The notes: generated from the sequence alone by a model not told the origin. 64,000 bases of DNA from Elusimicrobiota bacterium (GCA_016218575.1 JACRDN010000019.1:332302-396301), one strand, 5' to 3'. Shown: positions 4,549 to 60,088, numbered from the stretch's first letter. Program-made: numbers and translations.

Positions 4549-4651
4549 GATCCGAATTATGGCATAGGCTAAAACCCCCCGCCGGGTCCTTGGGCCTACT
4601 TTTGCGCCGGCAAAGGGCCTAGGTCCGGTTGGGGCGAAAGGCCCAAAAAGG

Positions 4652-7252: not shown

Positions 7253-7308
7253 GACGGGGTCAAGCGAGATCTTGACCCGCGTTTGTTTACCCTCTATACT
7301 GAGAACGC

Positions 7309-10648: not shown

Positions 10649-10705
10649 GGGGGCAGTATATAAAATTCAGGCAATTCGGTGACTGTCACCAAATTACGAC
10701 GACTA

Positions 10706-11641
10706 CTACTCGCCGAATTTTTCCTTGAGGAGACGCAGGAACTTGTCGCGCTCGGATTCGCCGCCGCTGGGAAGGAAGGAGCCTAATTGCCGGGCCATGA
10801 CGGCCATCTGGGCGCGCAGTTGGGCCGCGGCCGAGGCTTCCTGGATATACTTCCGAAGTTCTTGGGAGCGCTGCTCCAAGGCCTTGAGGAGCTCCGCCCT
10901 CTCGGCTTGCAGGGAAGCGATGACTCGCTCTTGGGAAGAGGAGTGCTCGGCCGGGGACTGGGAGAGCTCTCTGGCTTCGGCCTTGAATTCCTTCAGGACT
11001 GCGGTTTGTTCGGCCATGCGGCTTTCGAGTCGAGAGAGAGTTTGGCCGAGGCCGGCCTTAAATTCTTCAAATTTCCGCGCGAGACTCGCCAGTTCCGATC
11101 CCAGATCCAGCTTGTCCTGGAGGGATCCCCGTTCCTTGGCCAAGGCCATGGCCCCGGCGATCTCGGCCTTGAGCGCGGCCTGCTCCTGCGCCAGAGTGGC
11201 CTGGGCGGCGCTCGCGGCCTGGGATTGGGCCTCCCTCTGGCTCAAGGATTCTTTTATTAAGGAGAGCCAGCTTTGGTGCATCTCGTCCAGGCGACGCTCC
11301 AAAGCGTCCACGCGCCCCCGGGCGTGGGCCTTGGTCTCCTCGCTTTCCCTCTCCAGTTTCTCGCGCCTGAGCTGGTCGGTGAGGGACTTGAGATGGGTTT
11401 CGACCTCTTGGCGTATGGCGTCCTGCTGTTTGAGAAGGTTTTGGGCCGACTGGGCGCGCTCGCGCTCCACCGCCAGCTCCCCCTCCAGGGCCTCCAAGCG
11501 CCTTTCCAGGAAGGACATCATCGGGGTCAAGGGCACGTAGGGAGGCTGGGGCGAGATGAGTTCGGCCGGAGGCGGGAGGGGAGGTTGCGATCGAGGTGGT
11601 GCCGGGATCTGGGGCTCGTCGCTGGGGTTGGACATGGTCAT
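10706..11641 (-). CDS. Proline-rich N-terminus plus long coiled-coil protein (hypothetical)
   Basis: The N-terminus is PQIPAPPRSQPPLPPPAELISPQPPYVPL, followed by about 250 aa of heptad-like, E/R/A/L/Q-rich sequence. Its start overlaps the upstream barrel gene by 4 bp. The antisense ORFs in this region have nonsense composition. Confidence 0.6.
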   Translation of the reverse strand: MTMSNPSDEPQIPAPPRSQPPLPPPAELISPQPPYVPLTPMMSFLERRLEALEGELAVERERAQSAQNLLKQQDAIRQEVETHLKSLTDQLRREKLERESEETKAHARGRVDALERRLDEMHQSWLSLIKESLSQREAQSQAASAAQATLAQEQAALKAEIAGAMALAKERGSLQDKLDLGSELASLARKFEEFKAGLGQTLSRLESRMAEQTAVLKEFKAEARELSQSPAEHSSSQERVIASLQAERAELLKALEQRSQELRKYIQEASAAAQLRAQMAVMARQLGSFLPSGGESERDKFLRLLKEKFGE

Positions 11642-12618
11642 CTCTCGCGGTTGCGCCGGGAGGTCTTCGCCGGCAGATTGAAGCTGATCGAAAATCTGTG
11701 AATCTGGTCTCCCAGGATTCCGAAGGGAGAGAAGGCATAATCGAAGCTCCAGTCCCCCACCGAGACGCCCATGCCCGCGCTGAACGTGGTGGCAAACCCC
11801 AGGCTCTGCATGGTGAGGGTGTTGAGCCCTCCCCGCACGGCGGCCTTGATGTTGCGGTCCACCTCTAGCTTGTATTCCATGCCCAAGGCCGCGTGCGGGG
11901 TATTATTGGCCGGCATGATCCCTTCGAGGGAAAGAGTGAGCGCGTTGTTGGGATGGACGGCCGTTCCCAGGCGCGCCCGGAAGGGCAGGGTGTCTCGTAC
12001 CTGGTCGAATTTCTGGCCCTGGCCCAGGTTCTGGGCCACGAAGGCCACGTCGTAGATGTAGCGGCCGCTGTAGAAGCGGCTCAATATCCCTATGTCCCCG
12101 CCGAAGCCGTCTCCGTGCAGGAGGTAGTCCGAGTGGATCCAGCGCCCGGCCACTCCCATGGAAATGTCCATCTCGCTGTCGGAGAGGTCGTAGATGGCCT
12201 GCCCCCAGCCGCCCTCGATCACGTAGTCGCGGGGATGGAATGTTCCCACGGTCCTGCCTGCTAGATCCGTGTGGTCTATCTCGCCGATGTCTCGGTGGCG
12301 CAGGCCCGCGGCGAGCACCCCGTTGTCGGAGACCCTCTTGGCCACGGCCGCGGATTGGTAGGTGATGTCCTGCACGTAGCGCGAGTACATGAAGGTGGCC
12401 GAGATCCTGGGGATTTTGGCCAGGCCCGCCGGGTTCCAATACAGGGAGTAGGCGTCGTCTGTCACGGCCGAGTAGGCGCCGCCCATGGCGATGCCGCGCG
12501 CGCCCTGGTCGAAGAGGAGGAACTCAGAGCCGGTGGTTCCCACCGCGGCCTTGCTGAAATCCGAGGCGCGCGCCACCGGCGGTAAAGCCATCAGCAGGGC
12601 GAGGGCGGCAGTTCTCAC
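11638..12618 (-). CDS. Outer-membrane beta-barrel, FadL/PorV-like (UPF0164-type)
   Basis: It has a signal peptide, then GARGIAMGGAYSAVTDDAYSLYWNPAGLA, alternating beta-strand periodicity, and a C-terminal RFSISFNL ending in an aromatic/Leu beta-signal. It sits 4 bp-overlapped directly downstream of the CTD-bearing giant gene. Confidence 0.65.
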   Translation of the reverse strand: MRTAALALLMALPPVARASDFSKAAVGTTGSEFLLFDQGARGIAMGGAYSAVTDDAYSLYWNPAGLAKIPRISATFMYSRYVQDITYQSAAVAKRVSDNGVLAAGLRHRDIGEIDHTDLAGRTVGTFHPRDYVIEGGWGQAIYDLSDSEMDISMGVAGRWIHSDYLLHGDGFGGDIGILSRFYSGRYIYDVAFVAQNLGQGQKFDQVRDTLPFRARLGTAVHPNNALTLSLEGIMPANNTPHAALGMEYKLEVDRNIKAAVRGGLNTLTMQSLGFATTFSAGMGVSVGDWSFDYAFSPFGILGDQIHRFSISFNLPAKTSRRNRER

Positions 12619-15600
12619 CGGAGCACCACCACTTTATGGACCTTTTTTTGCCCGTTGAACTCCAAAGTCGCCAAGTACACCCCGCTCGCCGCCGGCCGGC
12701 CGTAGAGATTCACTCCGCCCCAGATCATGAGTCCAGAGCCGTTGGCTTGGCCCTCAAAGACCAATTCCCCCCTCAAAGTGAACACCCGCACCCTGGCCCC
12801 GGCCGGCATCTGCGAGAAGGTGACGTAGCCATGGCCTCGGTTCGGCATGAAGGGGTTCGGGAAAACCCGAGCCTGCTCCACCGAGGTGGAGGGGCTCACC
12901 CGCACCACCTGGAATTGGGAGAAATGGTTGAGCTGGACCGTCATGCGGTGGTTGACGCTGTCCACCACGGTCTGCAGGGGCACGCAGGCTCCGGAGTCAT
13001 CCACCCGCATGAACGTGGCTTCGCCGGCTGGGATGGGCACCGCCGCGAGCTCCGCATCGGCGAAGGAGAAGGTCAGGAAAACCGGGCCGACCGGCTGCAT
13101 CGTGGGCCGTGGGGTGATGGAAAGCCCGATATTGGCCCCGCCGGCTCCGCAGGGAGAGGGCGGGACCGTGAAAGAGGAGACGGTCACGAAGACGTCCGAG
13201 GCAAAGGACTTGGCCGGCACCGTGAGCTTGACGTAGCGGGAGTTGCCGAGGGTTCCTTCGATTATGTTGTTCTGCGTCGTGAGGACCGTGCCACCCAGGG
13301 ACCCGGCCGGGACTCCCCCGTTGAAGGGTGCCGTGGTGACGGTGTTGGAGAAGGCGCTTGCCAGGCCGCTTAAGTTCTGGGCCGCCACGCGTATGGAGAT
13401 CGTCGTGCCGGTCAGGAGGCTCGAGAGGACCAAGGCGGTCTGGTTCGACTGCTTGGAGAAGGCGAGCGGCGTCGAGACGTGCGTCACGAAGTTATCCGTG
13501 GAATAGGTCACCTGGTAGGTGGCCGAGGAGGAGTTGTTGTTGGAGTTCCAGGAAACCGAGATGGAGGATGGCGTGGTCCCCAGGACCGTCAGGCTGGTCG
13601 GGGGATTGGCCAAGGTCGAGGTGGTGCCTAGGACGAGATAGCTGGAGGCCACGCTATCGCCATTAAGCGACCGGACCTTCACGTCGAAGGGCATGGCGGG
13701 AGAGGCCAGGTCGGCGACGCTGGCGGAGAATCCCGTCGTGGTGATGGTGCTCACCACGGCGTCTCCCGAGGAGACGATCATCTCGAAGGTGGTGCCGGCT
13801 GGGTTCTCGTTGGTGTTCCATATGCCCGTAAACGAGCCCGTGGTGACGTTCAGTATGGGCGGGCTTACGGCCAAGGGGATGGCCGACAAGGTGAAGGTGG
13901 TGGCAGAGGCCGATAAGGGCCCCTCCCCGGCCTGGGTCACCGCGCTAACGTACACGGAGCGGACCGAGTTCGTGGAGAGCCCTGTGTCTTGGAAGACGTT
14001 GGTGTTGGGGGTGGCGATCACCGCACCCGTCGTCGAATTATAGACCTTGTAGAAATTGACTCCCCCCGGATCCACCCAGCTCCACTGTATGCTCGTGGTG
14101 GTGAGCCCCGTTCCGGCCAACCCCGCCACGGGGGTCCTGGTTTGTGTGGCGACGACCACGCTGAAGTTGGAGGCGGTGCCGGCGCCGTTGAAGGATCTCA
14201 GGCGCAGATAATAGGTCGTGTTCGACTGCAGTGGAGCAAGAATTACGTTGTCCGTGGTGAGCCCCGAGAGGCTAGGCACCGGGGTCGAGAAGGAGAGCGC
14301 GAAGTTGTCCGTCGAGAGCGACACCTCGTAGATGGTCCCCTGGCTGTTGCCGTTGACGTTCCATGAGAGAAGAAGGCTTGTGGATGTTACCGAGGTCACG
14401 GCCACGCTCACGGGGACGGTCGAAAGCGTGAAGAAGGTGGCCGATGTGGTCAACGGGCCGTCGCCCGTGAGGGTGTAGGCCCCCACCAGGAGCTGGGCCG
14501 TGGCGTTGGGGGCTAGGCCCCGCTGGGTGTAGGTCGGGGTGGCCGCGCCCACGGTCGAGATGAAGACCCCGGTGGTGGCGGAGAAGACCTCGTAGCCGTC
14601 CATCGTGGTCTGGCCTTGGATGTCGGTCCAACTCCAAGTGATGGTCGTGGAGGTGATGGAAACCGTGTTGGCGGTCACGCTGGTCGGGCCCACCGTGGGC
14701 TTGGGGGGGCCGGCTTGGACGAGCACGCTGTCGGAGAATTGGGAGTTGGAGGCGGAGCGCAGGTGGTACCATCCGTAAGGAAGGAAGGTCCCGCCGGGGG
14801 AGGGCAGGGGGCTCTGCGCCGCCGAGGGCATGAGCACCGTCATGGAGGAATCTGTCTTGGTCCAGAGGTTTGGATCGGGGGTCTTGCTGTAGACCCTCGT
14901 GGACAGGTCGAGGGCGAAGCCCCCGGAGCCTTGGGAGCTCGTGCCTCCGGAACCGTCCACCGCCTGCAAAACCGCGCGAGGATGGAAATGGGAGGAGTTC
15001 CCGCTGGCGGGCCCCCCGCTCGAGGCCTCCGTGATTCCCTGGAAATTCCGCCCGCTCAAAGTGACGAAGTCCCCTCGGTTGAAGGGAGAAAGGTCCACCG
15101 CGGTGATGGTGGACTGCCTGGCGCTGGGAGGGGCCCCGAGGCTCGCGGCGTCCGGCGAGCCCGTGAAGTAGAGTCGCTCGGCGCTCGACAAGAAGGCGGC
15201 CCCGCTATAGCCTCCGATGGCGTAAAGATTCCCGTCCTTGGCCAGGCTCGTCGTGTGGTAGCCCCTGGAGGCGGACATGTTCCCGCTCACCTGCCAGGAC
15301 GAGGTCGCCACGTCGAAGGTCTCGCAGCTGTTCAAGGTGTTGCCCAAGGCCTGCGCGCCGCCCGCGATGATGACGTTGCCGTTGGGCAGCAAGGTCGCCG
15401 TGTGGCTGAAGCGCGGCGTGTTCAAGGGCCTCCCCGGGACCAAGGCCCCGGTGTCGGTCCATGTGTTGGCCACGGGATCATATATTAAGGAATAGGCGGT
15501 TTCCCCGAAGCCGTCGTTGCCCCCGGTCAAGAGGACCCGGCCGTCCATGAGCAAGGTGGCTGAGTGGGAATGCGAGCGCTTGGCGCTGCCAGCGCAGGGA

Positions 15601-18299
15601 TCTGCCGCGTTATTGAGGCAGGTGGCCATGGTCCAGGCGCCGGTGACGGGGTTGTAGATCTCATTGCGCGCGAGCACCCCGCTCGCGTTGACCCCTCCGC
15701 TCACCAGGATGCGTCCGTCCTGCAGGAGGGTGGACGTGTGCAGGGCCCGGGCCAGGTTCATGCTGCTGATGGGCCGCCAGGCCCCGGCCGTGGAGTAGTA
15801 GATCTCGGCCTCGTTATGGTAGGTCCCCCCGTTGTAGCCGCCGGTCGCCAGGACGTTCCCATCGGCCATGAGGACCGCCGCATGGTTGTCCCGGGCCGTG
15901 TTCATGGACTGGGTGGGAACCCAGATCCCGGTGGCGGGGTAGTAGATCTCGGCTCCCGCGGTGGCCCCGGTGCTCGTCGCGTTGGTGGTGAAGCCCCCAG
16001 AGACCAGGACCCGGCCGTTGGGGAGCAAGGTGGCCGTGTGAAGATCGCGGACCTCCAGCATCGGCCCGGTTGCGGAGAAGCGCGCGGTCACCGGATCGAA
16101 AAGCTCGGCCGAGCGCAAGACGTTGGGGCCGTTGGACCCGCCCGCCACCAAAATATTTCCATTGGGGAGCATGGTGGTGGTGTGGTTTCCCCTAGAGTTG
16201 GTCATGCCGGCGCTGTTGGCCGTCCAGGCTCCGAGCCTGGGGATGACGCGCGCCGATCCCCGGGGCGAGGAGGAGGTGCAGTCGGTCTGGGAGGTTTGGG
16301 AGTCGGTGCAGCTCAGTCCCCCCAGGAGGGAGATGTCTCCGCTGGGGGTGAGAGTGGCGCTATGCCCGTGCTTCTGGCTGCCGAACCCCTGCACCGTGAA
16401 GCTCCAGGCGTTGCTTTGGGGGTTGAATTTGGTCAGATCGCTGAACATCATGCTGCGTATGACCACCGTGGCGACGTCCACCGTGAAATTGGTTTGGCTT
16501 AGGTTCACGCGGCTGGCCACGAACTTGAGCGTGCCGGAAAGCCCCGTGACCACCCGGCCGGCCACGTTGAAGGGAGTGACCTGGTTCGTGGTCGTGCTCA
16601 CGTCCACCGTACCCCTCAAATTGATGAAGGATGCGTTGAAGGAGAACTCGGCTCCCCCCGCCCCGTCGTCCACCACCGTGGGAGCCCCCGGGATCTGGGT
16701 GAAGCCGTCGGTGAAGGAGAGGGTCGCGATGTTGGTGATGGAGAGGCTGCCCGCGGTGAGGCGCAGGCTGCCGCTGCTGATGGCGGCTCCCAGGAAAATC
16801 TTCGAAATCGGGACGGTCAAGGTCCCGGTCAGTATGCTCGCGGTGAGTATCGTCCCGGGCGAGTTGTCCACGGTCATGGGGGAAGCGGTGAACCCCACCG
16901 TGCTGTTGGCGATCAAGGTGAAATTGTCGGGGCTTACGGTGACGTCTGGGGTGAAATACTGGCCCTGCATCGGAGACAGCGAGACGGTGCGGCTGATCTG
17001 ACCGCAGGTCCCGGCTACAGGATCGCAGAAGACCCTGGTTCCGGCGAGACTCGCGCGCAGGCCCACCGCCGGGTCCGCGGTGCCGGCCCGGAGAATGGCC
17101 TGGCCCGTGACTCCCGAGTAGGTAAAGTTGACGATGGGCGAGGACATAAGGACCTCTCCCTGTTCTATGATCCCGGTGACCGGGACGGAGAGCGGGAAGT
17201 TGAGGTTGACGGCAAGATACCCGCCTGTCACGTTCATGGTGGACAGCACGTTGCCGAAGGAGCCGGTGACCGAGGAGCCGTCCACCAAGGTCGCCGAGGC
17301 GTTGACGAAGGTGGTGGTGATGTTCCCGAGGCCTCCGAACATGGCCAACTGTCCGTCGTTTTGAAGCGTCATGCTGTGGCCGAGGCTGCGCACCAGCATG
17401 GACGGGGCGGGCACCATGGAATCGGACACGGGGTCGTAGAGCTCCGTGGTTTGGAGGATTCCCTTGTTGGCCAGGGAGTCCCTGCCGTTGAAGCCCCCGG
17501 TGATGAGGACCTTGCCGTTGCCCATGAGGTTGGCGGTGTGATAGGCCCTTTGCTGGATGAGGTTCTTTCCGGCCTTGAAAGTCCCGGAAGTGGGATTGTA
17601 TATCTCGGTCGTGACGAGGTAGGGGTAGGTGGCGTTGTTGGGATCCCAGCCGCCGGCGAGGAAAACCCTGCCGTCGGGAAGCAAGGTCGAGGTGTGGAGG
17701 GACCGGGCCGAGGCCAGGGAGCCCGTGGCGGAGAAGGAGCCGAAGGCTCCCCCGCAGGTAAACGAGGGGTTGGTGGGCGCGTTGTAGAGCTCGCAGGAGC
17801 TGTTCATGGCGCCAGAGCCTCTTTGTCCGCCGCAGACCAGGACCTTGCCGGTCTTGAGCAAGGTCGCGGTGTGGTTGAACCTTCCGTTGACCTCGGTCAT
17901 GGCCATGGAGGCGGACCAGCAGTTCTGGGACGGGTCGAAGACCACGGCGTCGGTGCGTACCCCCCCGGAGTTCACGCCGCCGACGATCAGGACCTGGCCC
18001 GTGGGAAGCATGGTCGCGGTGTGGGAGGCCCGGGCGACCGCCATGGCGGTCGCGTCCAAAAAGTCGTTTTGGCGCTCCAGGGAGATCTGGACGCCGGTCA
18101 AGGCCGTGGTGAGGTCGCCCGGGGCCGTCATTCCGCCCACGACGAGGATGTTGCCGTCGGGCAATAAAGTCGAGGTGTGGGCGAATCTAGAGGTAAACGC
18201 GACGGCGCCGGCCCTGGAGGCGCTCAATCCCAATGAAAAGCCCAAGCCGAGGGCCGTCCATAAAAATGCCGAGCGCCAAGTCGTCGGGCGAAGATGCAT
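12615..18299 (-). CDS. Giant secreted/surface protein (1894 aa): two Kelch beta-propellers, Fn3-like repeats and a T9SS-type C-terminal sorting domain
   Basis: It has a signal peptide (MHLRPTTWRSAFLWTALGLGFSLGLSASRAGA). There are at least 12 Kelch blades with the recurring HTxTLLPxGxVLVxGG pattern, in two clusters. At least five Fn3-like repeats follow (TSLLLSWNVNG...YEV, IQWSWVDPGGVNFYKVY, ISVSWNSNNN...YQVTY). The C-terminus VFPNPF...GVYLATLEFNGQKKVHKVVVLR matches the Por-secretion-tail / CTD type-A pattern. Confidence 0.85.
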   Translation of the reverse strand: MHLRPTTWRSAFLWTALGLGFSLGLSASRAGAVAFTSRFAHTSTLLPDGNILVVGGMTAPGDLTTALTGVQISLERQNDFLDATAMAVARASHTATMLPTGQVLIVGGVNSGGVRTDAVVFDPSQNCWSASMAMTEVNGRFNHTATLLKTGKVLVCGGQRGSGAMNSSCELYNAPTNPSFTCGGAFGSFSATGSLASARSLHTSTLLPDGRVFLAGGWDPNNATYPYLVTTEIYNPTSGTFKAGKNLIQQRAYHTANLMGNGKVLITGGFNGRDSLANKGILQTTELYDPVSDSMVPAPSMLVRSLGHSMTLQNDGQLAMFGGLGNITTTFVNASATLVDGSSVTGSFGNVLSTMNVTGGYLAVNLNFPLSVPVTGIIEQGEVLMSSPIVNFTYSGVTGQAILRAGTADPAVGLRASLAGTRVFCDPVAGTCGQISRTVSLSPMQGQYFTPDVTVSPDNFTLIANSTVGFTASPMTVDNSPGTILTASILTGTLTVPISKIFLGAAISSGSLRLTAGSLSITNIATLSFTDGFTQIPGAPTVVDDGAGGAEFSFNASFINLRGTVDVSTTTNQVTPFNVAGRVVTGLSGTLKFVASRVNLSQTNFTVDVATVVIRSMMFSDLTKFNPQSNAWSFTVQGFGSQKHGHSATLTPSGDISLLGGLSCTDSQTSQTDCTSSSPRGSARVIPRLGAWTANSAGMTNSRGNHTTTMLPNGNILVAGGSNGPNVLRSAELFDPVTARFSATGPMLEVRDLHTATLLPNGRVLVSGGFTTNATSTGATAGAEIYYPATGIWVPTQSMNTARDNHAAVLMADGNVLATGGYNGGTYHNEAEIYYSTAGAWRPISSMNLARALHTSTLLQDGRILVSGGVNASGVLARNEIYNPVTGAWTMATCLNNAADPCAGSAKRSHSHSATLLMDGRVLLTGGNDGFGETAYSLIYDPVANTWTDTGALVPGRPLNTPRFSHTATLLPNGNVIIAGGAQALGNTLNSCETFDVATSSWQVSGNMSASRGYHTTSLAKDGNLYAIGGYSGAAFLSSAERLYFTGSPDAASLGAPPSARQSTITAVDLSPFNRGDFVTLSGRNFQGITEASSGGPASGNSSHFHPRAVLQAVDGSGGTSSQGSGGFALDLSTRVYSKTPDPNLWTKTDSSMTVLMPSAAQSPLPSPGGTFLPYGWYHLRSASNSQFSDSVLVQAGPPKPTVGPTSVTANTVSITSTTITWSWTDIQGQTTMDGYEVFSATTGVFISTVGAATPTYTQRGLAPNATAQLLVGAYTLTGDGPLTTSATFFTLSTVPVSVAVTSVTSTSLLLSWNVNGNSQGTIYEVSLSTDNFALSFSTPVPSLSGLTTDNVILAPLQSNTTYYLRLRSFNGAGTASNFSVVVATQTRTPVAGLAGTGLTTTSIQWSWVDPGGVNFYKVYNSTTGAVIATPNTNVFQDTGLSTNSVRSVYVSAVTQAGEGPLSASATTFTLSAIPLAVSPPILNVTTGSFTGIWNTNENPAGTTFEMIVSSGDAVVSTITTTGFSASVADLASPAMPFDVKVRSLNGDSVASSYLVLGTTSTLANPPTSLTVLGTTPSSISVSWNSNNNSSSATYQVTYSTDNFVTHVSTPLAFSKQSNQTALVLSSLLTGTTISIRVAAQNLSGLASAFSNTVTTAPFNGGVPAGSLGGTVLTTQNNIIEGTLGNSRYVKLTVPAKSFASDVFVTVSSFTVPPSPCGAGGANIGLSITPRPTMQPVGPVFLTFSFADAELAAVPIPAGEATFMRVDDSGACVPLQTVVDSVNHRMTVQLNHFSQFQVVRVSPSTSVEQARVFPNPFMPNRGHGYVTFSQMPAGARVRVFTLRGELVFEGQANGSGLMIWGGVNLYGRPAASGVYLATLEFNGQKKVHKVVVLR

Positions 18300-27625: not shown

Positions 27626-27843
27626 GATTCGTACAATTGTGTACAGAAACCTGCTACGCTCATTTTAACAGGTCCGGGCTCCCGTTTCAAGGCGCAGAAG
27701 AACCCTGTAGGAGCCTTTAATCGAAAAACCTATTTGAGTATTCGGACCTCGGAGCCGTTTTTAGGCTCTTTTTTGGGCCCTTTGGGAGGTATTGCGTGAC
27801 GCTGAAGTTCGCCGATTTGTCGACGAGAATCGGGTGTGAAATC

Positions 27844-27917
27844 TGGAGCGGGCGATGGGAATCGAACCCACGTCCGAAGCTTGGGAAGCTTCTATTCTAC
27901 CATTGAACTACGCCCGC
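27844..27917 (-). tRNA. tRNA-Gly(CCC)
   Basis: The minus-strand sequence GCGGGCG-TA-GTTC-AATGGTA-GAAT-A-GAAGC-TTCCCAA-GCTTC-GGAC-GTGGG-TTCGATT-CCCAT-CGCCCGC-T-CCA folds into a cloverleaf. The acceptor stem is a perfect 7 bp. The anticodon loop TTCCCAA gives anticodon CCC. The T-loop is TTCGATT and CCA is encoded. Confidence 0.85.
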
Positions 27918-28877
27918 TAAGGACTGCAGAGCCCTCATTTTAGCGGGATTGAGGCCTTGCGTCAAGGCCGGTTCTTTGGAGAAGGGCAGGGTCAAAGCGA
28001 ACTCCTCGCTCCACTGGTACTCCGGCTTCTTGAAATCATGGCGCACCTTCAGTTTCACCAGGTACGAGTTCTGTTCGTTTAATTCCTGGTAGAGCGGTAT
28101 CAATAAGACGTTGCGCGGCAGATTGGCGAGATCCCTCTTGCCTTTGACCATGCCGAAAGCCATGGAGCTGCCGGCGGGAATCCTCTGGGCCTCGTACTGG
28201 ATGTCGGAGATCATTTTCTTGTCCAAGACCTCCGGCTTGATGGAGACGGACATGATTCCTTTTCCGCTTTCCTTGTCGTTGTAGGCCCGGAAAACCATGT
28301 TGTCTTGGATGAAGCGGAGCAGTTCTTCATCGGGTTTCGGAGCCGGCGGGGTCGGGTCGGGCCTGCCTTCTCCCTTGGCCAGTTGGAACACGTAGGAATC
28401 GGGCATTTCCCGGTTTTGGAAGCGGTGAACCGGGGGTTCCTGATAGCTGTAATGGGAGGACTTTACCTCCGCGGCGTAGGCATCGTAGCGGGAGAAGGGA
28501 TTTCCCGCGCCATGGTGGTAGGTGAGCTTGATCTCCTCGCTCTGTCCTTCCCGCAAGGCGGCATCGGCCGGGAATTGGAGCGCGACCTTCACCGGCTTCT
28601 CGTAGTCCCGGTACTCGTAGTCCCGGCAAACTCTCGTGGGATAACAGTATTGATGGCAGTGCCAATGGCATCCGCCGTGGGGGGCCGGAAGGCAGGAGCA
28701 ATGCTCGCGGCATTCGGTCTCCCAATGGCATCTCGTTTCGATTCGATAGACCCATAGCTTTAAATCGAACTCAACGCGGTCCTGGCCGGTGCGGCGCGCG
28801 GCGCTAAACTCATCGGCCCGGGCGTTCCCTGTCAATAGAGCGCAGAACAGTCCGGCGCAGGCAATTAGGTTTTTCAT
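27897..28877 (-). CDS. Cys/His-rich secreted hypothetical protein
   Basis: The start is set at the ATG at 28877, preceded by aggataaaa (SD), giving a signal peptide MKNLIACAGLFCALLTGNARA. A cluster CHWETECREHCSCLPAPHGGCHWHCHQYCYP suggests metal or disulfide binding. The 3' end overlaps the tRNA 5' end by 21 nt. Confidence 0.55.
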   Translation of the reverse strand: MKNLIACAGLFCALLTGNARADEFSAARRTGQDRVEFDLKLWVYRIETRCHWETECREHCSCLPAPHGGCHWHCHQYCYPTRVCRDYEYRDYEKPVKVALQFPADAALREGQSEEIKLTYHHGAGNPFSRYDAYAAEVKSSHYSYQEPPVHRFQNREMPDSYVFQLAKGEGRPDPTPPAPKPDEELLRFIQDNMVFRAYNDKESGKGIMSVSIKPEVLDKKMISDIQYEAQRIPAGSSMAFGMVKGKRDLANLPRNVLLIPLYQELNEQNSYLVKLKVRHDFKKPEYQWSEEFALTLPFSKEPALTQGLNPAKMRALQSLAGVVQW

Positions 28878-29059
28878 TTTTATCCTCGCGAGATAACCAA
28901 TCTGATGATATTCAAGCCCCGCTGTCAATGGAAAATGCTCGCTAGTCCTACGTTTGAAATAGGCCCTTCGACCCATGACAGTGTTGACGCGGCCGCCCTA
29001 AAACTGGTATTTGTATTTCACCGCGAATTATTCGATAAATCGCCGCATTGGGGGACGCT

Positions 29060-29671
29060 ATGGACACTCTGCAATTCGTGACGCGCTGGCTGCATGTCAT
29101 CGCCGGGATCACCTGGATCGGCCATCTTTATTTCTTCAACTTCGTCAACGTCCCCCTCCAGGCGGCCTTGGACGACGCGGGGAAAAAAGCCGTGAACCCC
29201 AAGCTCATGCCCCGCGCTTTGTGGTGGTTCCGTTGGGGCGCCATGCTCACCTTCCTGACCGGACTCCTGCTCTTTTCCCTCATCTATATGTATTTGCCGG
29301 GCGCGGGCTTCGGGCCAAACGCGCTGTTTCATGACGAGATGGGGCTGACCGACCGCGCCTCTTGGATCATGCTCGGCATGCTTTTTGGAAGCGTCATGTG
29401 GTTCAATGTCTGGTTCATCATCTGGCCCATCCAGAAAAAAATCCTCTCCGGCAAGGCGACCCCCGAGGAGTTGCCGGTGATCCGCCGCCGGGCCTACCTT
29501 GCTTCCCGCGCCAACACCTATCTCTCCGGGCCCATGCTCCTGGGGATGCTCGCCGCCAACCACATGACGGCTGGCTACACGGTGGGAGGGCTCCTGATCT
29601 GGTCCGCTTTGGCTCTCGCCGTCGTCTGGGTTGCGATCTTCCACGCCGACCGCGTGGGAACCTCGGTTTAA
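29060..29671 (+). CDS. Polytopic membrane protein (HemJ/CopD-like, uncertain family)
   Basis: There are 4-5 TM helices. The N-terminal motif RWLHVIAGITWIGHLYFFNFV (a conserved His in TM1) resembles HemJ/CopD-type heme/copper-handling membrane proteins. The ATG at 29060 is preferred over the TTG at 29048. Confidence 0.5.
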   Translation: MDTLQFVTRWLHVIAGITWIGHLYFFNFVNVPLQAALDDAGKKAVNPKLMPRALWWFRWGAMLTFLTGLLLFSLIYMYLPGAGFGPNALFHDEMGLTDRASWIMLGMLFGSVMWFNVWFIIWPIQKKILSGKATPEELPVIRRRAYLASRANTYLSGPMLLGMLAANHMTAGYTVGGLLIWSALALAVVWVAIFHADRVGTSV

Positions 29672-29693
29672 CACAAGTTTAGAACAGAAAAAT

Positions 29694-29722
29694 CCCTGCA
29701 TTTTAATATGCAGGGGTTTTCT
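29694..29722 (+). terminator. Rho-independent terminator
   Basis: ccctgcat-tttaat-atgcaggg is an 8-bp GC-rich stem with a 6-nt loop, followed by gttttct. It is preceded by aaaaat, so it could work in either direction. It lies 22 nt after the stop of the 29060-29671 gene. Confidence 0.6.
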
Positions 29723-29835
29723 ATTCTAGCGTCTGATGATCAAGGAGTTTTAGCGAGCTCCAAGTCGCCAACCGCGCTGATGTTTGTATTGGTTGCGGTC
29801 AACTATACGGTTCATCCGAGAAACGGGAGAAGAAT

Positions 29836-30372
29836 TTGATCAGTTATCTATCAACAGTCCCTTGCGTCAATGTCATCGTGTTGGCAACCTTATTTTGTGG
29901 TGCCTGCCAGCATGAATCCCCAAGTCAACGCTTTAAGTCCATGAAACTATATTCTGAAGTTAAGATCGGACCGGCTGTTGATAGTCGAACAAGAGAAGGC
30001 AAAAGGATTGCACTGATTATTCATCCCCGGCAGTTGAAGTCCAAGGACGAAGGGAATGAGCAGTGCAAGTTGTTCGCAATGCCGCACGATGTAGTGTTGG
30101 TGGAAGATGTCCATGAACTTGTGAGAATAGAAGTCAAGTATTTGGGGGAGATGATCAGCCTGGTCAATCTGCCGGATGAGAAAGGATTTCGAGCAGTGTA
30201 TGCGTATGACAGCGACTCCGGCTCAGAATCCACGACCCTGGAATATGCCGGCCAATTGGCCGCCGATAAAGTGTCCGGACATGCTTCAATGAACGTGGAT
30301 GAGCTTGGCAAGCGCTGCGCTATAACTTTTTCATTCAATGAACGCTTGCCATCTGTGAAGAACGAAAAGTGA
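29836..30372 (+). CDS. AT-rich ORFan, putative lipoprotein (likely horizontally acquired)
   Basis: The ORF is about 45% GC against a 65% background. It has a TTG start with a gggagaag SD 5 nt upstream and a signal peptide ISYLSTVPCVNVIVLATLFCGAC. I recognise no homology to any family. Confidence 0.45.
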   Translation: MISYLSTVPCVNVIVLATLFCGACQHESPSQRFKSMKLYSEVKIGPAVDSRTREGKRIALIIHPRQLKSKDEGNEQCKLFAMPHDVVLVEDVHELVRIEVKYLGEMISLVNLPDEKGFRAVYAYDSDSGSESTTLEYAGQLAADKVSGHASMNVDELGKRCAITFSFNERLPSVKNEK

Positions 30373-55907: not shown

Positions 55908-55936
55908 TTGACAGCACAGGTCAATTCCGATAGTAT
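55908..55936 (+). promoter_or_regulatory. Sigma70-like promoter: TTGACA, 17 nt, TAGTAT
   Basis: The -35 is cTTGACAg (55908-55913) and the -10 is TAGTAT (55931-55936), separated by 17 nt. The ATG of the downstream gene is at 55948, in an AT-richer intergenic stretch. Confidence 0.5.
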
Positions 55937-55947
55937 CTGGAAACGTC

Positions 55948-56577
55948 ATGAACGGCCTGTGGGCGGACTCCTGGTTCTACGTCTCGGCGGCTGGTTTTTT
56001 GGTGAGTTCGGTGTTTTTCATGTTCCTGTTGCGCCAATACCGTATAGCGGTCGAGAGCGAGGAAGCTCACGAGCCCGCGCCCCAGCCGGAGATCAAGCCC
56101 ATCGCGGCCGCTCTCAAACCCGTCCCTGAGGCGGTGGCGCCCCTGAGCTTGGAAAGGCCGGTTCCCAAGGTTGCCGCCGAGCCGTCTGTTCCCGCCCCGG
56201 CGCCCGCGCCTAACTTGAAGCCTCAATTGGAGAAACTTGAAAAAGAAATTTCCACGTTGAAAGCCCTGGTCATGAAGCAGGCCGAGGCGAGCCAGGACAT
56301 TCTCAAGCGTTTGAACGACATGGGAGCGAGGCTGCCCTCCCCGGCTCCGGTCTCGGTCCAGGCGCCGACGGCCTCAGATGCGGCCGGTCCTGCCCGGTCC
56401 TTGGGAGATAAGTTGCCGGGCATGGGCGCGCCAGCACCCGCGGCGGCTCCCGCCGCCGTTGAGCTGAAAGCGGAGGCTCCGGCTCAGGAGCCGAGCAAGC
56501 TTCCTTCCGTCCAACCAGAGGCATCCCCGGCTGATGAGGAAAAACCTGGCCGGAAGGGTCCTGTCTGGCCAATCTAG
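55948..56577 (+). CDS. N-terminally membrane-anchored Pro/Ala-rich protein with a short coiled coil
   Basis: It has one TM (WFYVSAAGFLVSSVFFMFLL), then PAPQPEIKPIAA..., then a coiled-coil segment LKPQLEKLEKEISTLKALVMKQAEASQDILKRLNDM, then PAPAAAPAAVELKAEAP. The composition is analogous to 10706-11641 and 18367-19038. Confidence 0.55.
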   Translation: MNGLWADSWFYVSAAGFLVSSVFFMFLLRQYRIAVESEEAHEPAPQPEIKPIAAALKPVPEAVAPLSLERPVPKVAAEPSVPAPAPAPNLKPQLEKLEKEISTLKALVMKQAEASQDILKRLNDMGARLPSPAPVSVQAPTASDAAGPARSLGDKLPGMGAPAPAAAPAAVELKAEAPAQEPSKLPSVQPEASPADEEKPGRKGPVWPI

Positions 56578-56633
56578 CCCTCCACATCTTCATCCTCGCT
56601 TGCAGCGTTCAGTCGGCCCGGGCCGGCTCTTTC

Positions 56634-57530
56634 TTGCCGGCGGTTCCTTTTTCCAAGCAATCCGCCGGAACCACGGCCGCCGCTTTCCTTAAGATTCCCA
56701 CCATGGCCAGGTCCCTGGCCATGGGAGGCACCCAGGCGGCATGGGCCCAAGGCGCTGAAGCCATTTTCTCCAATCCCGCGGGCTTGGCTTGCCTGGAGGG
56801 ACGCCGCGGCCCCGCGGAGCTGTCGCTTGCCTACGGGCGCCTCCTCGAGAGCGTTTACTCCGGGGCCGCCAGCTACGCCCGGCCCCTCGGCGCCGAGTCC
56901 GCCGTCGGGTTCGGCGTCCTCTATTTTACCCAGGCCCCGCAGACCGCCTACAGCACGACTGGGGATTCCACCGGAGAGTTCACGCCCTACGATCTGGCGG
57001 CCGCGCTGGGCTATGGGCGCAGGTCCGGCAGGATCCGGATGGGGGCGAGCCTCAAGCTCATCCGTTCCTCCCTGGCCGATGTTTCCGGGGCCACCGCCGC
57101 GGCGGACGTTTCGGTTCAGGTTCTCCATGCCGCGCGGGTAGGAGACACTCCGGTGGACATCGGGGCGGGTCTATCCAATCTGGGACCGGGTCTGCGCTTG
57201 GGCGAGAACACCGCGCCCTTGCCCCTGCACCTGCGCGCCGGCATGCTCTGGCACGCCTCAGAAGCCGCGGGCGCGGCCCTGGACCTCAACTTGCCGGTGG
57301 ACCACGATCCCTACGTCAGCCTGGGGTTTGAGCGCGAATTTAAGCGCGATTCCCTGCGGGCGGCCCTGCGCCTAGGCTACAACCAGGCCTATGCCCGGGA
57401 CGTGGAGGGGCTGGCCGGGGTCACCGCCGGGGCGGGCGTGGACACCGGGGGATTCAGGCTCGACTACGCATGGGTTCCCTTCGGAGAGCTCGGCATGACG
57501 AACCGATTTTCCCTCCTTGTTCGGTTCTGA
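56634..57530 (+). CDS. Outer-membrane beta-barrel, FadL/PorV-like (UPF0164-type), paralogue of 11638-12618
   Basis: TTAAAFLKIPTMARSLAMGGTQAAWAQGAEAIFSNPAGLA aligns with the N-terminal block of the 11638-12618 protein, and the C-terminus GFRLDYAWVPFGELGMTNRFSLLVRF ends in Phe. The listed start is a TTG; a signal-peptide-like LANLALHIFILACSVQSARA is encoded in-frame just upstream, so the true start is probably earlier (after 56538). Confidence 0.6.
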   Translation: MPAVPFSKQSAGTTAAAFLKIPTMARSLAMGGTQAAWAQGAEAIFSNPAGLACLEGRRGPAELSLAYGRLLESVYSGAASYARPLGAESAVGFGVLYFTQAPQTAYSTTGDSTGEFTPYDLAAALGYGRRSGRIRMGASLKLIRSSLADVSGATAAADVSVQVLHAARVGDTPVDIGAGLSNLGPGLRLGENTAPLPLHLRAGMLWHASEAAGAALDLNLPVDHDPYVSLGFEREFKRDSLRAALRLGYNQAYARDVEGLAGVTAGAGVDTGGFRLDYAWVPFGELGMTNRFSLLVRF

Positions 57531-59029
57531 TGGGGCTAGCGGGGATCGTTCTTGCCCTGTTCGGGTTGTGCCTGGCTCTGTTCCATCCGGTCCTGGGCTT
57601 CGGCTTCGTCAATTTCGACGATGGGCTCTATGTCGCCCAGAATCCTTTCACCGCGTCCGGGCTCACGTTTTCCGGGCTACGTTGGGCGTTCACCCGCTTC
57701 CACGGCGGCAATTGGTACCCCCTGACTCTTCTCTCCCACATGTGGGACGTCCAGATCTACGGGCTCAATCCCGCCGGGCATCACTTGAGCAATATCCTCC
57801 TCCATGCCGCCAATGTCCTCATCCTCTTCGCGGTCTTGCGCCGCTTGAGCGGCGATTGCTGGCGAGCCGCCTTGGCGGCCGCGATCTTTGCCGTCCATCC
57901 CCTGCAGGTCGAGACCGTGGCCTGGGTTTCCCAAAGAAAGACTTTGCTCAGCTTCTTCTTCTGCCTGAATGGAGTGTGGGCATACTCCCGGTGGGCGCAA
58001 ACCCGGACCAAGGGGTTTTTCGCGGCCCTGCTCGCGGTCTTCGCCGCGGCCCTCATGTCCAAGGCCACTGCCGTGACCTTGCCCGTATTCCTTCTGATCT
58101 TGGATTTTTGGCCCTTGCGCCGTCCCGAACCGTTGAGTCGCCTCATTCTGGAAAAAACCTGGCTCTGGCTTATGTCCTTGGCGGCCGGGTTTGCGGCCTT
58201 GGCGGGAGCCGCGGGCGTTTCATGGCAAGCTTTGCCCCCGGCGGCCCGTCTCGGCCACGCGGCGCTCTCGTACGCGGCGTATTTTCGGGAATTTTTCTGG
58301 CCCGCGGGGCTCTGCGTCTACTACCCGTATCCCGCCTCTCTGGACCTGAGCCGTGCCTTGGCCGCGGCCCTGGCGGGCCTGGCTCTCGGTTCCGGAGCCT
58401 GGCGGAGCCGCGAGCGCCGGCCCTGGCTCTGGGCCGGCTGGCTGTGGTTTCTTGCGGCCTTGCTGCCGATGATCGGTCTTTCCCAGGTGGGAGGCCAAGC
58501 CAGGGCCGACCATTACATGTACCCGGCCTTGCCCGGCTTGGCCGCGGCTCTGGCCTTTTCGCTGCCCCTCTCGAGGCTCGCCCTGATCCCGGCCGCGGCC
58601 ATGGTGATCGGGTGTTCGGCCGCTTCCTCGGCGCAGCTCCGGCATTGGAGAGACAGCGTCTCTTTGTTCGAGCGGGCGCTCTCGGTGGACGAAGGTGATT
58701 TCCTGGCGCACAACAACTTGGGATTTGCCCTGCTGCAAGGCGGCAAGACCAGGCAAGCTCGAATTCATTTCGAGCGCGCCCTCGAGCTCTTGCCGACCTA
58801 CGCGGACGCCCGCACCAACCTGGGCATCTGCCTGGCTCTAGAGGGCGACGCGGCCCGGGCTCGCCGTGAGTTCGAGGCCGTCCTGCGCGCCGAGCCGCGT
58901 TCCCCGGGGGCCCGCCTCAACCTCGAGATGCTGGGAAAGCTCGAGAAGCTAGGCAAGTCACAAGGCCTCGACCGCCACCGCCACCCCGAGGCCCCCTCCG
59001 ACGCAGATCGAGGCTACGCCTCTCCGTAA
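57530..59029 (+). CDS. TMTC-like GT-C glycosyltransferase (DUF1736) with C-terminal TPR repeats
   Basis: The polytopic N-terminal half has HHLSNILLHAANVLILFAVL and HPLQVETVAWVSQRK, characteristic of the TMTC/DUF1736 family. The C-terminus has TPR repeats (HNNLGFALLQGGKTRQARIHFERALELLPTYADARTNLGICLALEGD). The ATG at 57530 overlaps the upstream TGA (TGATG). Confidence 0.7.
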   Translation: MGLAGIVLALFGLCLALFHPVLGFGFVNFDDGLYVAQNPFTASGLTFSGLRWAFTRFHGGNWYPLTLLSHMWDVQIYGLNPAGHHLSNILLHAANVLILFAVLRRLSGDCWRAALAAAIFAVHPLQVETVAWVSQRKTLLSFFFCLNGVWAYSRWAQTRTKGFFAALLAVFAAALMSKATAVTLPVFLLILDFWPLRRPEPLSRLILEKTWLWLMSLAAGFAALAGAAGVSWQALPPAARLGHAALSYAAYFREFFWPAGLCVYYPYPASLDLSRALAAALAGLALGSGAWRSRERRPWLWAGWLWFLAALLPMIGLSQVGGQARADHYMYPALPGLAAALAFSLPLSRLALIPAAAMVIGCSAASSAQLRHWRDSVSLFERALSVDEGDFLAHNNLGFALLQGGKTRQARIHFERALELLPTYADARTNLGICLALEGDAARARREFEAVLRAEPRSPGARLNLEMLGKLEKLGKSQGLDRHRHPEAPSDADRGYASP

Positions 59030-60088
59030 GCGGCGGCGCTTGAGTTCCTTGAGCAACGTCAGTACGAGCCGCAGGCCCGTCCCGGCGAAAGGATGCCCCA
59101 GGGCCAAGGCCCCGCCGTTCACGTTGACTTTTTCCTCTGGAATTCCCAGCTCGCGGATGTCTATGAGGGTTTGGGCCGCGAAGGTCTCGTTGATCTCGTA
59201 GAGGTCTATTTTCTCGGGCGAGAGCTTGAGCTCGCTCAAGAGGCGGCGCACGGCGGGCACCGAGGCCTCTGCCATTCTCTCTGGAGGCACCCCTGTCACC
59301 TCTCCTCCCAGATAGCGGCCCAGGGGAGGCTCTTGGAAGCCCTCGGCCTCTTTCTCTCCGGCCAGAAGCAGGGCCGAGCCGCCGTCCACGATGGCGTGGG
59401 TGTTGGCGCGCGTGATCGAACCGTTCTCGAAGAGGGGTTCGGCCCGGGCGAAAAAGTCCGGCCGCGGGTCGGCCAGGACGGAGTCGTCCTCTCGCACGCC
59501 TTCGATAGGGACGATTTCCTCCTTGAAGATCCCCCGCCCCTGGGCCGCGCGAGCGCGGGCATGGCTGATGAGAGCCCAGCGGTCCTGCTCTGCCCGCGAG
59601 ATGCCGAGCTCTTGGGCCAAGGCATGGGCGGTCTCTGCGATGTGCCTGCCGCAGGAAATGTCCTTGAAGGACGGCACGAAAATGTCGCGCCGCAGAAGGC
59701 TTGGGCAGTCCGCTCCCGCTGCCGCGACCACGCCCGCGCGCCCCAGCTCGATCTCCGATGCCGCCGTGATGAGGGCTTGCAGTCCGGTGCCGCAGGCCAG
59801 CCCCACCGAGAGGCAGGGCGTTTGAGGCGGAATGTGGGCTCGGTGCGCGAGATAGCGCGCCCCGTAGCAGGCGTGCGGCCCCGCCTGGTACATGTTGCCG
59901 AAGACGACTTTATCGACCTTTTCGGAAATCACCCGGGCATGGGCCAAGGCGGCCTCTAGGGCCTCGGCTCCCAGGTCGAAGGGGTTGAAGCGGCTCAAGG
60001 CCCCGCCCTTTTGCCCGGCCCCGCCCAGGCCGTGGGACCAGGCGGCCAAGGGAGTGCGCGCTCCGGAAAGGATGAAAATCCGGCTCAT
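58958..60088 (-). CDS. Thiolase-family acetyl-CoA C-acyltransferase
   Basis: IFILSGARTPLAA, an active-site-region LSVGLACGTGLQAL, a C-terminal NVNGGALALGHPFAGTGLRL, and ICVGGGLGVAVAVE. Confidence 0.75.
   Translation of the reverse strand: MSRIFILSGARTPLAAWSHGLGGAGQKGGALSRFNPFDLGAEALEAALAHARVISEKVDKVVFGNMYQAGPHACYGARYLAHRAHIPPQTPCLSVGLACGTGLQALITAASEIELGRAGVVAAAGADCPSLLRRDIFVPSFKDISCGRHIAETAHALAQELGISRAEQDRWALISHARARAAQGRGIFKEEIVPIEGVREDDSVLADPRPDFFARAEPLFENGSITRANTHAIVDGGSALLLAGEKEAEGFQEPPLGRYLGGEVTGVPPERMAEASVPAVRRLLSELKLSPEKIDLYEINETFAAQTLIDIRELGIPEEKVNVNGGALALGHPFAGTGLRLVLTLLKELKRRRLRRGVASICVGGGLGVAVAVEAL

Follow-up and report, generated by a model that had tools for sequence, protein, structure and literature searches.

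Outer-membrane barrels of the PorV type and the C-terminal domains (CTDs) that resemble type IX secretion system (T9SS) CTDs have, to our knowledge, been studied almost only in Bacteroidota, and Elusimicrobia is a phylum in which we know of no T9SS. A literature search for the T9SS or PorV homologues in Elusimicrobia likewise found no paper in the library searched. For Bacteroidota, one published account (PMC9143113) describes genes for type-B CTD cargo followed by a dedicated PorP/SprF-like barrel. Among glycosyltransferases with the GT-C fold, the TMTC enzymes are defined by a GT-C membrane domain, a DD motif, C-terminal tetratricopeptide repeats (TPRs) and a DUF1736 loop between transmembrane (TM) helices 7 and 8, and the human members match DUF1736 at E<1e-30 (PMC7801869). 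The present work deals with positions 55908-59029 of a 64,000-nt stretch of Elusimicrobia DNA, the whole of which is called the window. As originally predicted, and as confirmed by a listing of open reading frames (ORFs), this region holds three ORFs on the same strand, which encode a small membrane protein (ORF1), an outer-membrane barrel (barrel2, to be told apart from its paralogue barrel1 at 11638-12618) and a GT-C-fold glycosyltransferase. ORF1 and barrel2 constitute a new unit of two closely coupled genes, with a barrel of a known kind and a probable start at an unusual conserved CTG. The best overall explanation, to which we give about an even chance of being right, is that of a conserved ORF1-barrel2 pair, whose barrel would dock its clients in trans, joined by a lineage-specific GT-C gene.

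The conservation of the pair is seen across related genomes. A scan with a pattern taken from the barrel alignment, covering one genome per species, returned 79 loci, 45 of which carry an orthologue of barrel2 (43-57% identity) in the same neighbourhood. In these orthologous loci a response regulator gene and the gene of an acyl-CoA carboxylase beta subunit (PCCB) lie upstream on the opposite strand, followed by ORF1, the barrel, a variable slot and, convergent with them, genes for a thiolase and/or an inositol monophosphatase (IMPase); the thiolase gene is missing from many loci, in which the IMPase gene abuts the barrel. An ORF1 orthologue is present in all 34 orthologous loci with sufficient upstream DNA. 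Moreover, ORF1 ends in the motif GPVWP[VI] and a stop codon, and among the 45 orthologous loci this ending stands directly 5' of the barrel in 43. It occurs a single time in the window, all 33 loci with barrel paralogues lack it, and variant tails (PIFPI or NVYPV) are found in three loci (L037, L041 and L049). The Pro/Ala-rich upstream protein had been put forward as a partner of the barrel, and in this respect the original prediction is well supported; what is absent beside the barrel in 44 of the 45 orthologous loci is the GT-C gene, not ORF1.

The promoter proposed in front of ORF1 has also been kept. The region contains 2 sigma70-type matches, against 0.4 expected from shuffled sequences, and a perfect TTGACA together with a TAnnnT box ending 6-13 nt 5' of the ORF1 ATG recurs in 14 out of 14 orthologous loci examined, the spacer between the -35 and -10 elements being conserved and AATTCCGATA-like (55908-55948 in the window, as well as L007, L008, L012, L019 and others). 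With a promoter ending so close to the ATG, an ORF1 mRNA would be left with a very short leader or none, and its translation is probably leaderless or near-leaderless. Taken as a whole, 55908-59029 is best read as a single transcription unit whose two parts differ in age, the conserved ORF1-barrel2 pair and an accessory GT-C gene.

In profile searches ORF1 matched no Pfam or NCBIfam family, all of its named homologues are annotated as 'hypothetical protein [Elusimicrobia]', and an exhaustive profile search among 1.84 billion proteins yielded 167 representatives of the family. It had been described as a Pro/Ala-rich coiled-coil membrane protein: its composition (15% Pro, 18% Ala) and its single N-terminal TM helix agree with that description, and the coiled coil is reduced to just one short conserved heptad-like segment, for which the coiled-coil matches in Pfam were weak and sub-threshold only. 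The family shares an N-terminal helix with the consensus LW(A/G)DGWFY(I/V)SAxGF...LLGQYR and an invariant extreme C-terminus, [KR][KR]GPVWP[VI]. The Pro/Ala/Glu-rich linkers are very variable in length, and the proteins range from 209 (about 200) to about 420 aa. Counted across the orthologues, Lys and Arg add up to 65 in the 15 residues that follow the TM helix versus at most 18 before it, and the N-terminal flank is acidic. By the positive-inside rule, this clustering indicates that ORF1 is most likely oriented N-out/C-in, with the bulk of the protein in the cytoplasm.

Such an orientation bears directly on a different view of the pair, in which the C-terminal part of ORF1 would be periplasmic, its linkers would span the periplasm as in TonB/TolA, and its GPVWP[VI] tail would dock at the plug or lateral opening of barrel2, either linking the two membranes or gating the barrel. 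A tether of this kind would suit the strict co-occurrence and translational coupling of ORF1 and barrel2, and linkers that vary in length between conserved ends; there is also a precedent in BamG and BamH, where partner termini wedge into the wall of a FadL-type barrel (PMC12578637), and proline-rich periplasm-spanning transducers are widespread (PMC12204202). However, the charges around the TM helix predict the opposite topology, ORF1 shows neither an SHLS motif nor a match to the C-terminal domain of TonB/TolA, and no ExbBD/TolQR genes adjoin the pair, which leaves the tether quite unlikely in our view. The narrower identification of ORF1 as a TonB/TolA-like protein was rejected as well, its defining features failing and a Pro-rich linker being all that is held in common.

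At the junction between ORF1 and barrel2, the latter had been predicted to start at TTG 56634, which is almost certainly wrong, because a signal peptide is encoded upstream of this codon, probably from CTG 56565. In the window the barrel frame reads ...CLANLALHIFILACSVQSARA/GSFLPAVPFSK (the slash marking the cleavage site), without any ATG, GTG or TTG ahead of the hydrophobic core; the CTG lies 10 nt before the ORF1 stop, an AAGG Shine-Dalgarno-like element is found 7 nt upstream of it, and with a start at this codon the two genes would share 13 nt, barrel2 being in the -1 frame relative to ORF1. As a consequence of this frame relation, the codon straddling the Val-Trp of ORF1 (GTN TGG) has to be NTG. 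It is CTG in 31 of 35 orthologous loci, TTG in three and GTG in one, and the adjacent codons for Gly and Pro in the ORF1 tail are free to vary at their third positions. The third position of the Val codon is C in those 31 of 35 loci, compared with a share of 50% for GTC among the other Val codons of these genes (binomial P 2e-6, a nominal value that treats the loci as independent despite their shared ancestry). In 24 of 47 loci no canonical start is placed so as to encode a signal peptide, CTG being the sole plausible start in about half, and in L005 the barrel frame opens just three codons before the CTG. The signal peptides started at the CTG measure 20-22 residues and end in AXA cleavage sites in all loci, and gene callers place the barrel start inside or after them, reporting 275-298 aa instead of about 321. 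Initiation at CTG 56565, or re-initiation there after termination of ORF1, would be the most economical reading of these data.

Other routes into the barrel frame did not hold. A frameshift from ATG 56534 (MRKNLAGRVLSG, frame +2) was rejected, as this ATG is conserved in no orthologue and an independent Logan assembly of the region (L001) gives the same sequence. A programmed -1 frameshift fusing ORF1 to the barrel was likewise dismissed: the slippery heptamer G GGC CCC arises only where the third positions of the Gly and Pro codons are C, and the window carries GGT CCT at the would-be slippery site. A conserved mRNA structure at the junction was also sought and rejected (z-score 0.14, four invariant pairs without covariation).

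The same junction could be seen the other way round, with ORF1 acting mainly as a regulatory upstream ORF whose C-terminal peptide, of aromatic-Pro-aliphatic character, pauses or arrests the ribosome as in SecM, MifM and TnaC, and gates initiation at the CTG upon insertion of the ORF1 TM helix. The last six residues of ORF1 are invariant, with free third codon positions, and they lie directly over the downstream start; an N-terminal TM helix plus a C-terminal motif is the architecture of monitoring substrates, which ORF1 resembles; and the weak CTG has been kept though synonymous changes to stronger starts were available. Against this idea, the conserved coiled-coil block and TM sequence suggest a function for the protein itself, a linker-driven length range of 200-420 aa is unlike that of tuned force sensors, and the absence of a conserved mRNA structure means that none of the kind hides the start. 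Moreover, the terminal motif is retained even in three loci (L007, L038 and L040) whose barrel is provided with a separate GTG or ATG a short way past the stop of ORF1, so the tail appears to be selected as protein too. We consider a mainly regulatory role very unlikely.

Barrel2 itself belongs to a described family. The NCBIfam model of the PorV/PorQ family, NF033709, has a curated cutoff of 90 bits, which is exceeded by both barrel2 (149 bits) and barrel1 (157 bits). The scores of barrel2 with the equivalog models for PorV (NF033710) and PorQ (NF033711) are 59 and 91.6 bits, below their respective cutoffs of 250 and 220. An AlphaFold 2 model built from 17 orthologues (pLDDT 82, pTM 0.79) predicts an N-terminal plug of about 60 residues and, after it, a barrel of about 14-16 strands as assigned by DSSP, an approximate count taken from the prediction. 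Among solved structures, the best Foldseek match of this model is 8gl6_F, a chain of the T9SS complex that we take to be PorV (E 1e-12, TM-score 0.76), and the next ones are FadL, TodX, TbuX and CymD, followed by the BAM-complex chains 9hiv_F and 9hjm_F.

These FadL-like matches raise the question of whether barrel2 instead passes hydrophobic substrates, as a channel of the FadL type working for the acyl-CoA metabolism genes next to it (PCCB and thiolase), with ORF1 as a mere neighbour. The NPA motif is a feature of FadL, and the plug region of barrel2 contains it; together with the rank of FadL, TodX, TbuX and CymD among the structural matches and the conserved synteny with PCCB and, in many loci, thiolase, this gives the idea some appeal. 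The family models nonetheless favour PorV over such channels: against 149 bits for the PorV family, Toluene_X (PF03349) gives 13.2 bits (E 0.032, gathering score 29.7) and aligns with the N-terminal 33 residues only, the FadL/Toluene_X likeness being present at fold level, and 8gl6_F surpasses the other structural matches by five orders of magnitude in E-value. In addition, PCCB and thiolase are encoded on the opposite strand, the latter is often missing with IMPase abutting the barrel, and the 13-nt overlap argues for a coupling to ORF1, not to metabolic genes. A channel serving these genes is, in our judgement, distinctly unlikely, and we return to the PorV-like reading of barrel2 in what follows.

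Barrel1 lies in the first locus of the window. The two barrels align end to end (27% identity, E 2e-26) and have the AMGG, NPAGLA and DYA..PFG..RFS blocks in common, so that the pairwise alignment upholds the predicted relationship, and on their sequences they are true paralogues. Barrel1 lies behind a giant surface protein, hereafter its cargo, whose C-terminus scores 47 bits with the PorZ C-terminus and 20.4 bits with Por_Secre_tail (cutoff 23), the CHU_C and Por_Secre_tail matches being sub-threshold. A comparable layout is found in the 33 paralogue loci, where a same-strand ORF encoding 700-1950 residues typically precedes the barrel without a gap. For ten such ORFs, the window cargo and nine from related loci, the C-terminal 150 residues were searched, and all ten gave concordant matches to CHU_C, Por_Secre_tail or FlgD_ig, mostly sub-threshold and one above threshold; the arrangement of cargo and dedicated barrel thus holds for barrel1 and for all 10 paralogue loci tested. 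In the loci L051-L083 (for instance L054 7938-14689 and L062 3416-12733) the paralogues usually stand directly behind, and sometimes also before, giant proteins with T9SS-like CTDs, and the TIGR04183 cutoff is attained by two of the giants encoded downstream of such barrels. The giant ORFs beside the paralogue barrels are CTD cargo and not SprA. As for barrel2, a same-strand CTD cargo gene abuts it in none of the 45 orthologous loci, its upstream neighbour being ORF1 instead, which agrees with the original suggestion that it may act in trans. Judging from these gene orders, Elusimicrobia carry two classes of PorV-family barrels, one adjacent to its cargo and the other syntenic, cargo-less and paired with ORF1. 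With cargo-adjacent paralogues and a cargo-less barrel2, the analogy with PorV versus PorP/SprF-like barrels suggests that barrel2 most likely serves surface proteins with CTDs in general, as a barrel for docking or shuttling.

Beyond the barrels, the two loci of the window have little in common, and the claim that the second mirrors the first did not stand. The gene order is cargo, barrel, coiled-coil protein, dehydrogenase (ADH) and GT-C in the first locus versus coiled-coil protein, barrel and GT-C in the second. The coiled-coil protein of the first locus, cc1, has no detectable similarity to ORF1 and possesses neither a TM helix nor a GPVWP tail, and the pairwise alignment of the window GT-C with the ArnT/PMT_2-like GT-C of the first locus is not significant (E 0.11), the two belonging to different families. 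With these dissimilarities, the likeness of the two loci comes down to the paralogy of their barrels. In the first locus itself, barrel1, cc1, a zinc dehydrogenase and the ArnT-like GT-C (8034-12618, minus strand) are chained by 4-nt overlaps with one 57-nt gap. The near relatives of barrel1 (57% identity; L090-L092) all keep the order cargo, barrel1, cc1, and two of them that are possibly the same organism (L091 and L092) also keep the ArnT-like gene and a convergent RDD gene, without the dehydrogenase (L091 5158-10075). At 38% barrel1 identity (L067, L075, L078 and L093) both cc1 and the ArnT-like GT-C are gone.

The third gene of the second locus had been called a TMTC/DUF1736 glycosyltransferase with TPRs. 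A GT-C fold is predicted for it, and the DD motif and TPRs were recovered, D30-D31 being nearly invariant across 24 relatives; no DUF1736 (PF08409) match was obtained at E<=0.1, nor does DUF1736 figure in the 25 commonest families, out of 33 reported, of those relatives. PMT_2 (PF13231, GT39-like) matches occur in 8 of the 24, and yeast Pmt4 is the best solved-structure match of the window enzyme. We have therefore filed it, on its sequence features, as a PMT-like GT-C/TPR enzyme with TMTC-like architecture and not as a TMTC. From the helix count of the model, we infer that the DD-motif loop, which would be the first extracytoplasmic one, and the TPRs would be on the same side. The predicted translational coupling to barrel2 was found in this genome, where the stop of the barrel and the start of the GT-C overlap as TGATG (57528-57532). 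At the other end of the GT-C ORF, this gene and the convergent one for thiolase (58958-60088, minus strand) have 72 nt of their 3' ends in common (58958-59029), and the last ~22 residues of the GT-C, which have low confidence in the model, may be read-on past the functional end.

It was at this gene that the original prediction, of a second copy of one module and a functional triad, failed. The slot between the barrel and thiolase/IMPase may be empty or hold TauE, DUF1634, a B12/radical SAM enzyme, a sulfatase or an MtrB/PioB porin (L005-L050), and in at least 20 loci a convergent housekeeping gene follows within 150 bp of the barrel. A GT-C/TPR gene comes after the barrel in one of the 45 orthologous loci only (L008), and that one is of a different subclade. 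There, at 3868-8685, the barrel orthologue is followed by a GT-C/TPR gene, a PMT_2-like protein of 686 aa and a second GT-C/TPR gene, the two GT-C/TPR enzymes (P0051 and P0090) being tandem duplicates with 66% identity; another PMT_2-like gene occupies the slot in L033. The GT-C/TPR genes of L008 and of the window are not each other's closest relatives, and it follows from their different subclades that a GT-C was placed directly behind barrel2 at least twice. Besides, the six nearest homologues of the window GT-C (46-51% identity) have no PorV-family barrel as a neighbour, and in three assemblies a close GT-C homologue and an ORF1-barrel pair are unlinked on separate contigs: JACRDT (P0009 and L031), JACRDS (P0014 and L017) and JAQUNT (P0018 and L032). 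The retrieved loci, 0.96 Mb in all, showed no other GT-C/TPR gene. On this synteny, a constitutive triad of coiled-coil protein, barrel and GT-C is excluded, and the window GT-C is a lineage-specific addition to the ORF1-barrel2 pair.

A triad conserved twice in the genome, whose GT-C would glycosylate the clients of the barrel, could still call on several observations: the TGATG coupling in this genome, the recurrence of cargo, barrel1 and cc1 in three near relatives, with ArnT-like and RDD genes in two of them, and the GT-C/TPR gene of L008 and PMT_2-like gene of L033, which with the window make such landings behind barrel2 more frequent than the background (P 0.001-0.015 from a rough Poisson estimate that varies with the gene densities assumed in the same loci). 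It is faced with the absence of the GT-C from 44 of the 45 orthologous loci, at least 20 of which go straight into a convergent gene; with GT-Cs of different families, unrelated coiled-coil proteins and different gene orders in the two loci of the window; with window and L008 enzymes that are not closest relatives and pairs that are unlinked from close GT-C homologues in three assemblies; and with the loss of cc1 and the ArnT-like gene at 38% barrel1 identity. The synteny largely refutes this triad, which we regard as very improbable indeed.

Close GT-C/TPR homologues adjoin other envelope-biogenesis genes (L086 2581-5492; L084 738-5609): one lies directly after an Omp85-family gene, and two are found in a cluster with DsbA, DoxX/MauE ... 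response regulator, OmpA and BamD(YfiO)-like genes. The gene upstream of the homologue P0060 was considered as a possible barrel and rejected, as it encodes a polytopic membrane protein.

Under the explanation that we prefer, of a conserved pair with a lineage-specific GT-C, a consensus-like promoter would drive a nearly leaderless ORF1, a single-pass inner-membrane protein with Pro/Ala-rich disordered arms, a short coiled coil and an invariant tail. Ribosomes ending ORF1 would start barrel2 at the CTG located 10 nt before the stop, and the synthesis of barrel2 would thereby depend on the translation of ORF1. A Sec signal peptide of 20 aa would export the product, a small PorV/PorQ-family outer-membrane barrel with a FadL fold, which may dock or shuttle, in a general role, surface proteins whose genes lie at other loci. 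The PMT-like GT-C, occupying the variable slot and translationally coupled to barrel2, would be no constitutive partner; its DD-motif loop and TPRs, should it have the topology of TMTC and PMT enzymes, would be on the periplasmic side, and it may take a sugar from a polyprenyl-phosphate donor and attach it to proteins of the envelope or surface.

Several points weigh against this account. ORF1 has no homologue of known function, and a protein whose bulk is cytoplasmic leaves its coupling to an outer-membrane protein unexplained. All 45 loci come from one clade, so that a conserved gene order by itself says little about function. CTG initiates poorly, and synonymous changes in ORF1 could give GTG, TTG or ATG; the C has been kept all the same, which implies that something other than the start codon may be selected. 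A PorV-like shuttle role is proposed here with no T9SS machinery seen within the 64-kb window, none of SprA/Sov, PorU, PorZ and GldKLMN being among the window ORFs scanned. Finally, a GT-C stands directly behind the barrel in two lineages, above the background expectation, and a loose functional affinity between barrel and GT-C is conceivable.

A more far-reaching version would make ORF1 and barrel2 the core of an undescribed envelope system, in which barrel2, as a housekeeping PorV-like barrel, takes the many giant proteins with T9SS-like CTDs in trans, its synthesis is slaved to the membrane-anchored disordered ORF1 through CTG re-initiation within the GPVWP[VI] tail, and GT-C/TPR enzymes recruited independently in at least two lineages glycosylate the same clients; taken in full, this is unlikely. 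If the cargo-less barrel class does represent a general receptor, the sorting of surface proteins in a basal diderm phylum becomes testable. The overlap of ORF1 with barrel2 also provides a clear example from nature of a probable non-canonical start, a conserved CTG, that gene callers consistently miss, and the window illustrates that two loci each with a coiled-coil protein, a barrel and a GT-C need not be copies of one module. The features concerned are collected in Table 1.

Table 1. Coordinates of the features of the two barrel loci, counted from the first nucleotide of the window.
Feature	Position	Strand	Remarks
Sigma70-like promoter, TTGACA-17 nt-TAGTAT	55908..55936	+	Sequence scan, 10/12 match; ends 11 nt 5' of ORF1 ATG
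ORF1, 209 aa	55948..56577	+	Elusimicrobia family: N-terminal TM helix, Pro/Ala-rich disordered linkers, coiled-coil-like segment, invariant C-terminal tail
ORF1 TM helix, residues 10-28, FYVSAAGFLVSSVFFMFLL	55975..56031	+	Orthologue alignments; LWADxW before, RQYR after
ORF1 heptad-like segment, residues ~89-129, NLKPQLEKLEKEISTLKALVMKQAEASQDILKRLNDMGARL	56212..56334	+	Conserved block (SPAVVYLQN)IKxQMExFDKEIxxLK...ILKRLxEL
ORF1 C-terminal motif RKGPVWPI and TAG stop	56551..56577	+	Overlaps barrel2 ribosome-binding region and start codon
Probable barrel2 start CTG 56565 and 20-aa Sec signal peptide, (M)ANLALHIFILACSVQSARA/GS	56565..56624	+	Start predicted
Mature barrel2, PorV/PorQ-family outer-membrane beta-barrel, and stop codon	56625..57530	+	Plug region AMGG, NPAGLA; C-terminal ...RFSLLVRF
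GT-C-fold glycosyltransferase with C-terminal TPRs, 499 aa	57530..59029	+	Start ATG 57530
D30-D31 motif of GT-C membrane domain (~residues 1-373)	57617-57622	+	
GT-C TPRs, ~residues 376-473	58655-58948	+	TPR matches cover residues 392-468
Barrel1, paralogous PorV/PorQ-family barrel, first locus	11638..12618	-	Overlaps upstream cargo gene stop by 4 nt
Kelch/FN3-type surface protein, 1894 aa, T9SS-like CTD, barrel1 cargo	12615..18299	-	

Apart from these two loci, the window contains on its minus strand (19575-22370) an ORF of 931 aa with a full transaldolase domain and a phosphoglucose isomerase domain, which from its domain content appears to be a fused bifunctional enzyme of the pentose-phosphate and glycolysis pathways. 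An AbiEii-type nucleotidyltransferase toxin gene (26332-27096, minus strand) is located next to the one part of the window with a low GC content (28-30 kb, 0.55 vs ~0.63), and 26332-30000 may be a small mobile or defence island.

When set against known systems, each component of the unit finds a partial counterpart. ZipA and YhcB are bitopic inner-membrane proteins with an N-terminal anchor, and ORF1 is similar to proteins of this type in its anchor, its predicted N-out/C-in orientation, its disordered Pro-rich linkers and a coiled coil in its predicted cytoplasmic part; it differs from them in having no sequence similarity or globular domain, in its unique GPVWP[VI] tail and in its coupling to an outer-membrane barrel. 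The window GT-C shares with TMTC1-4, the eukaryotic O-mannosyltransferases, and with PMT/GT39 enzymes a predicted polytopic GT-C fold, the DD motif in the first loop and C-terminal TPRs, as well as the closeness to Pmt4 and the PMT_2 matches of its relatives already mentioned, but it has about 3-4 TPRs only and lacks both a DUF1736 match and the MIR domain of PMTs. With regard to BamG, a FadL-like barrel that is part of the BAM complex in Bacteroidota (PMC12578637), 9hiv_F and 9hjm_F, chains of BAM structures and possibly this subunit, are among the structural matches of barrel2; they score lower than 8gl6_F, and no BamA or BamD gene adjoins barrel2. The PorP/SprF systems resemble the first locus and most paralogue loci, in which a giant CTD protein is followed by a small barrel on the same strand, although the barrels of Elusimicrobia are of the PorV/PorQ family and not PorP_SprF, and barrel2 has no adjacent cargo. 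Compared with PorV, barrel2 is about 100 residues shorter, its equivalog scores of 59 (cutoff 250) and 92 (cutoff 220) are far below the cutoffs, and it is always paired with ORF1, which is without a counterpart in the T9SS; in turn, it has in common with PorV a score above the NF033709 cutoff, a predicted FadL-type barrel with AMGG and NPAGLA plug blocks, a best structural match within the T9SS complex and, as PorV itself, a gene that lies apart from any cargo gene.

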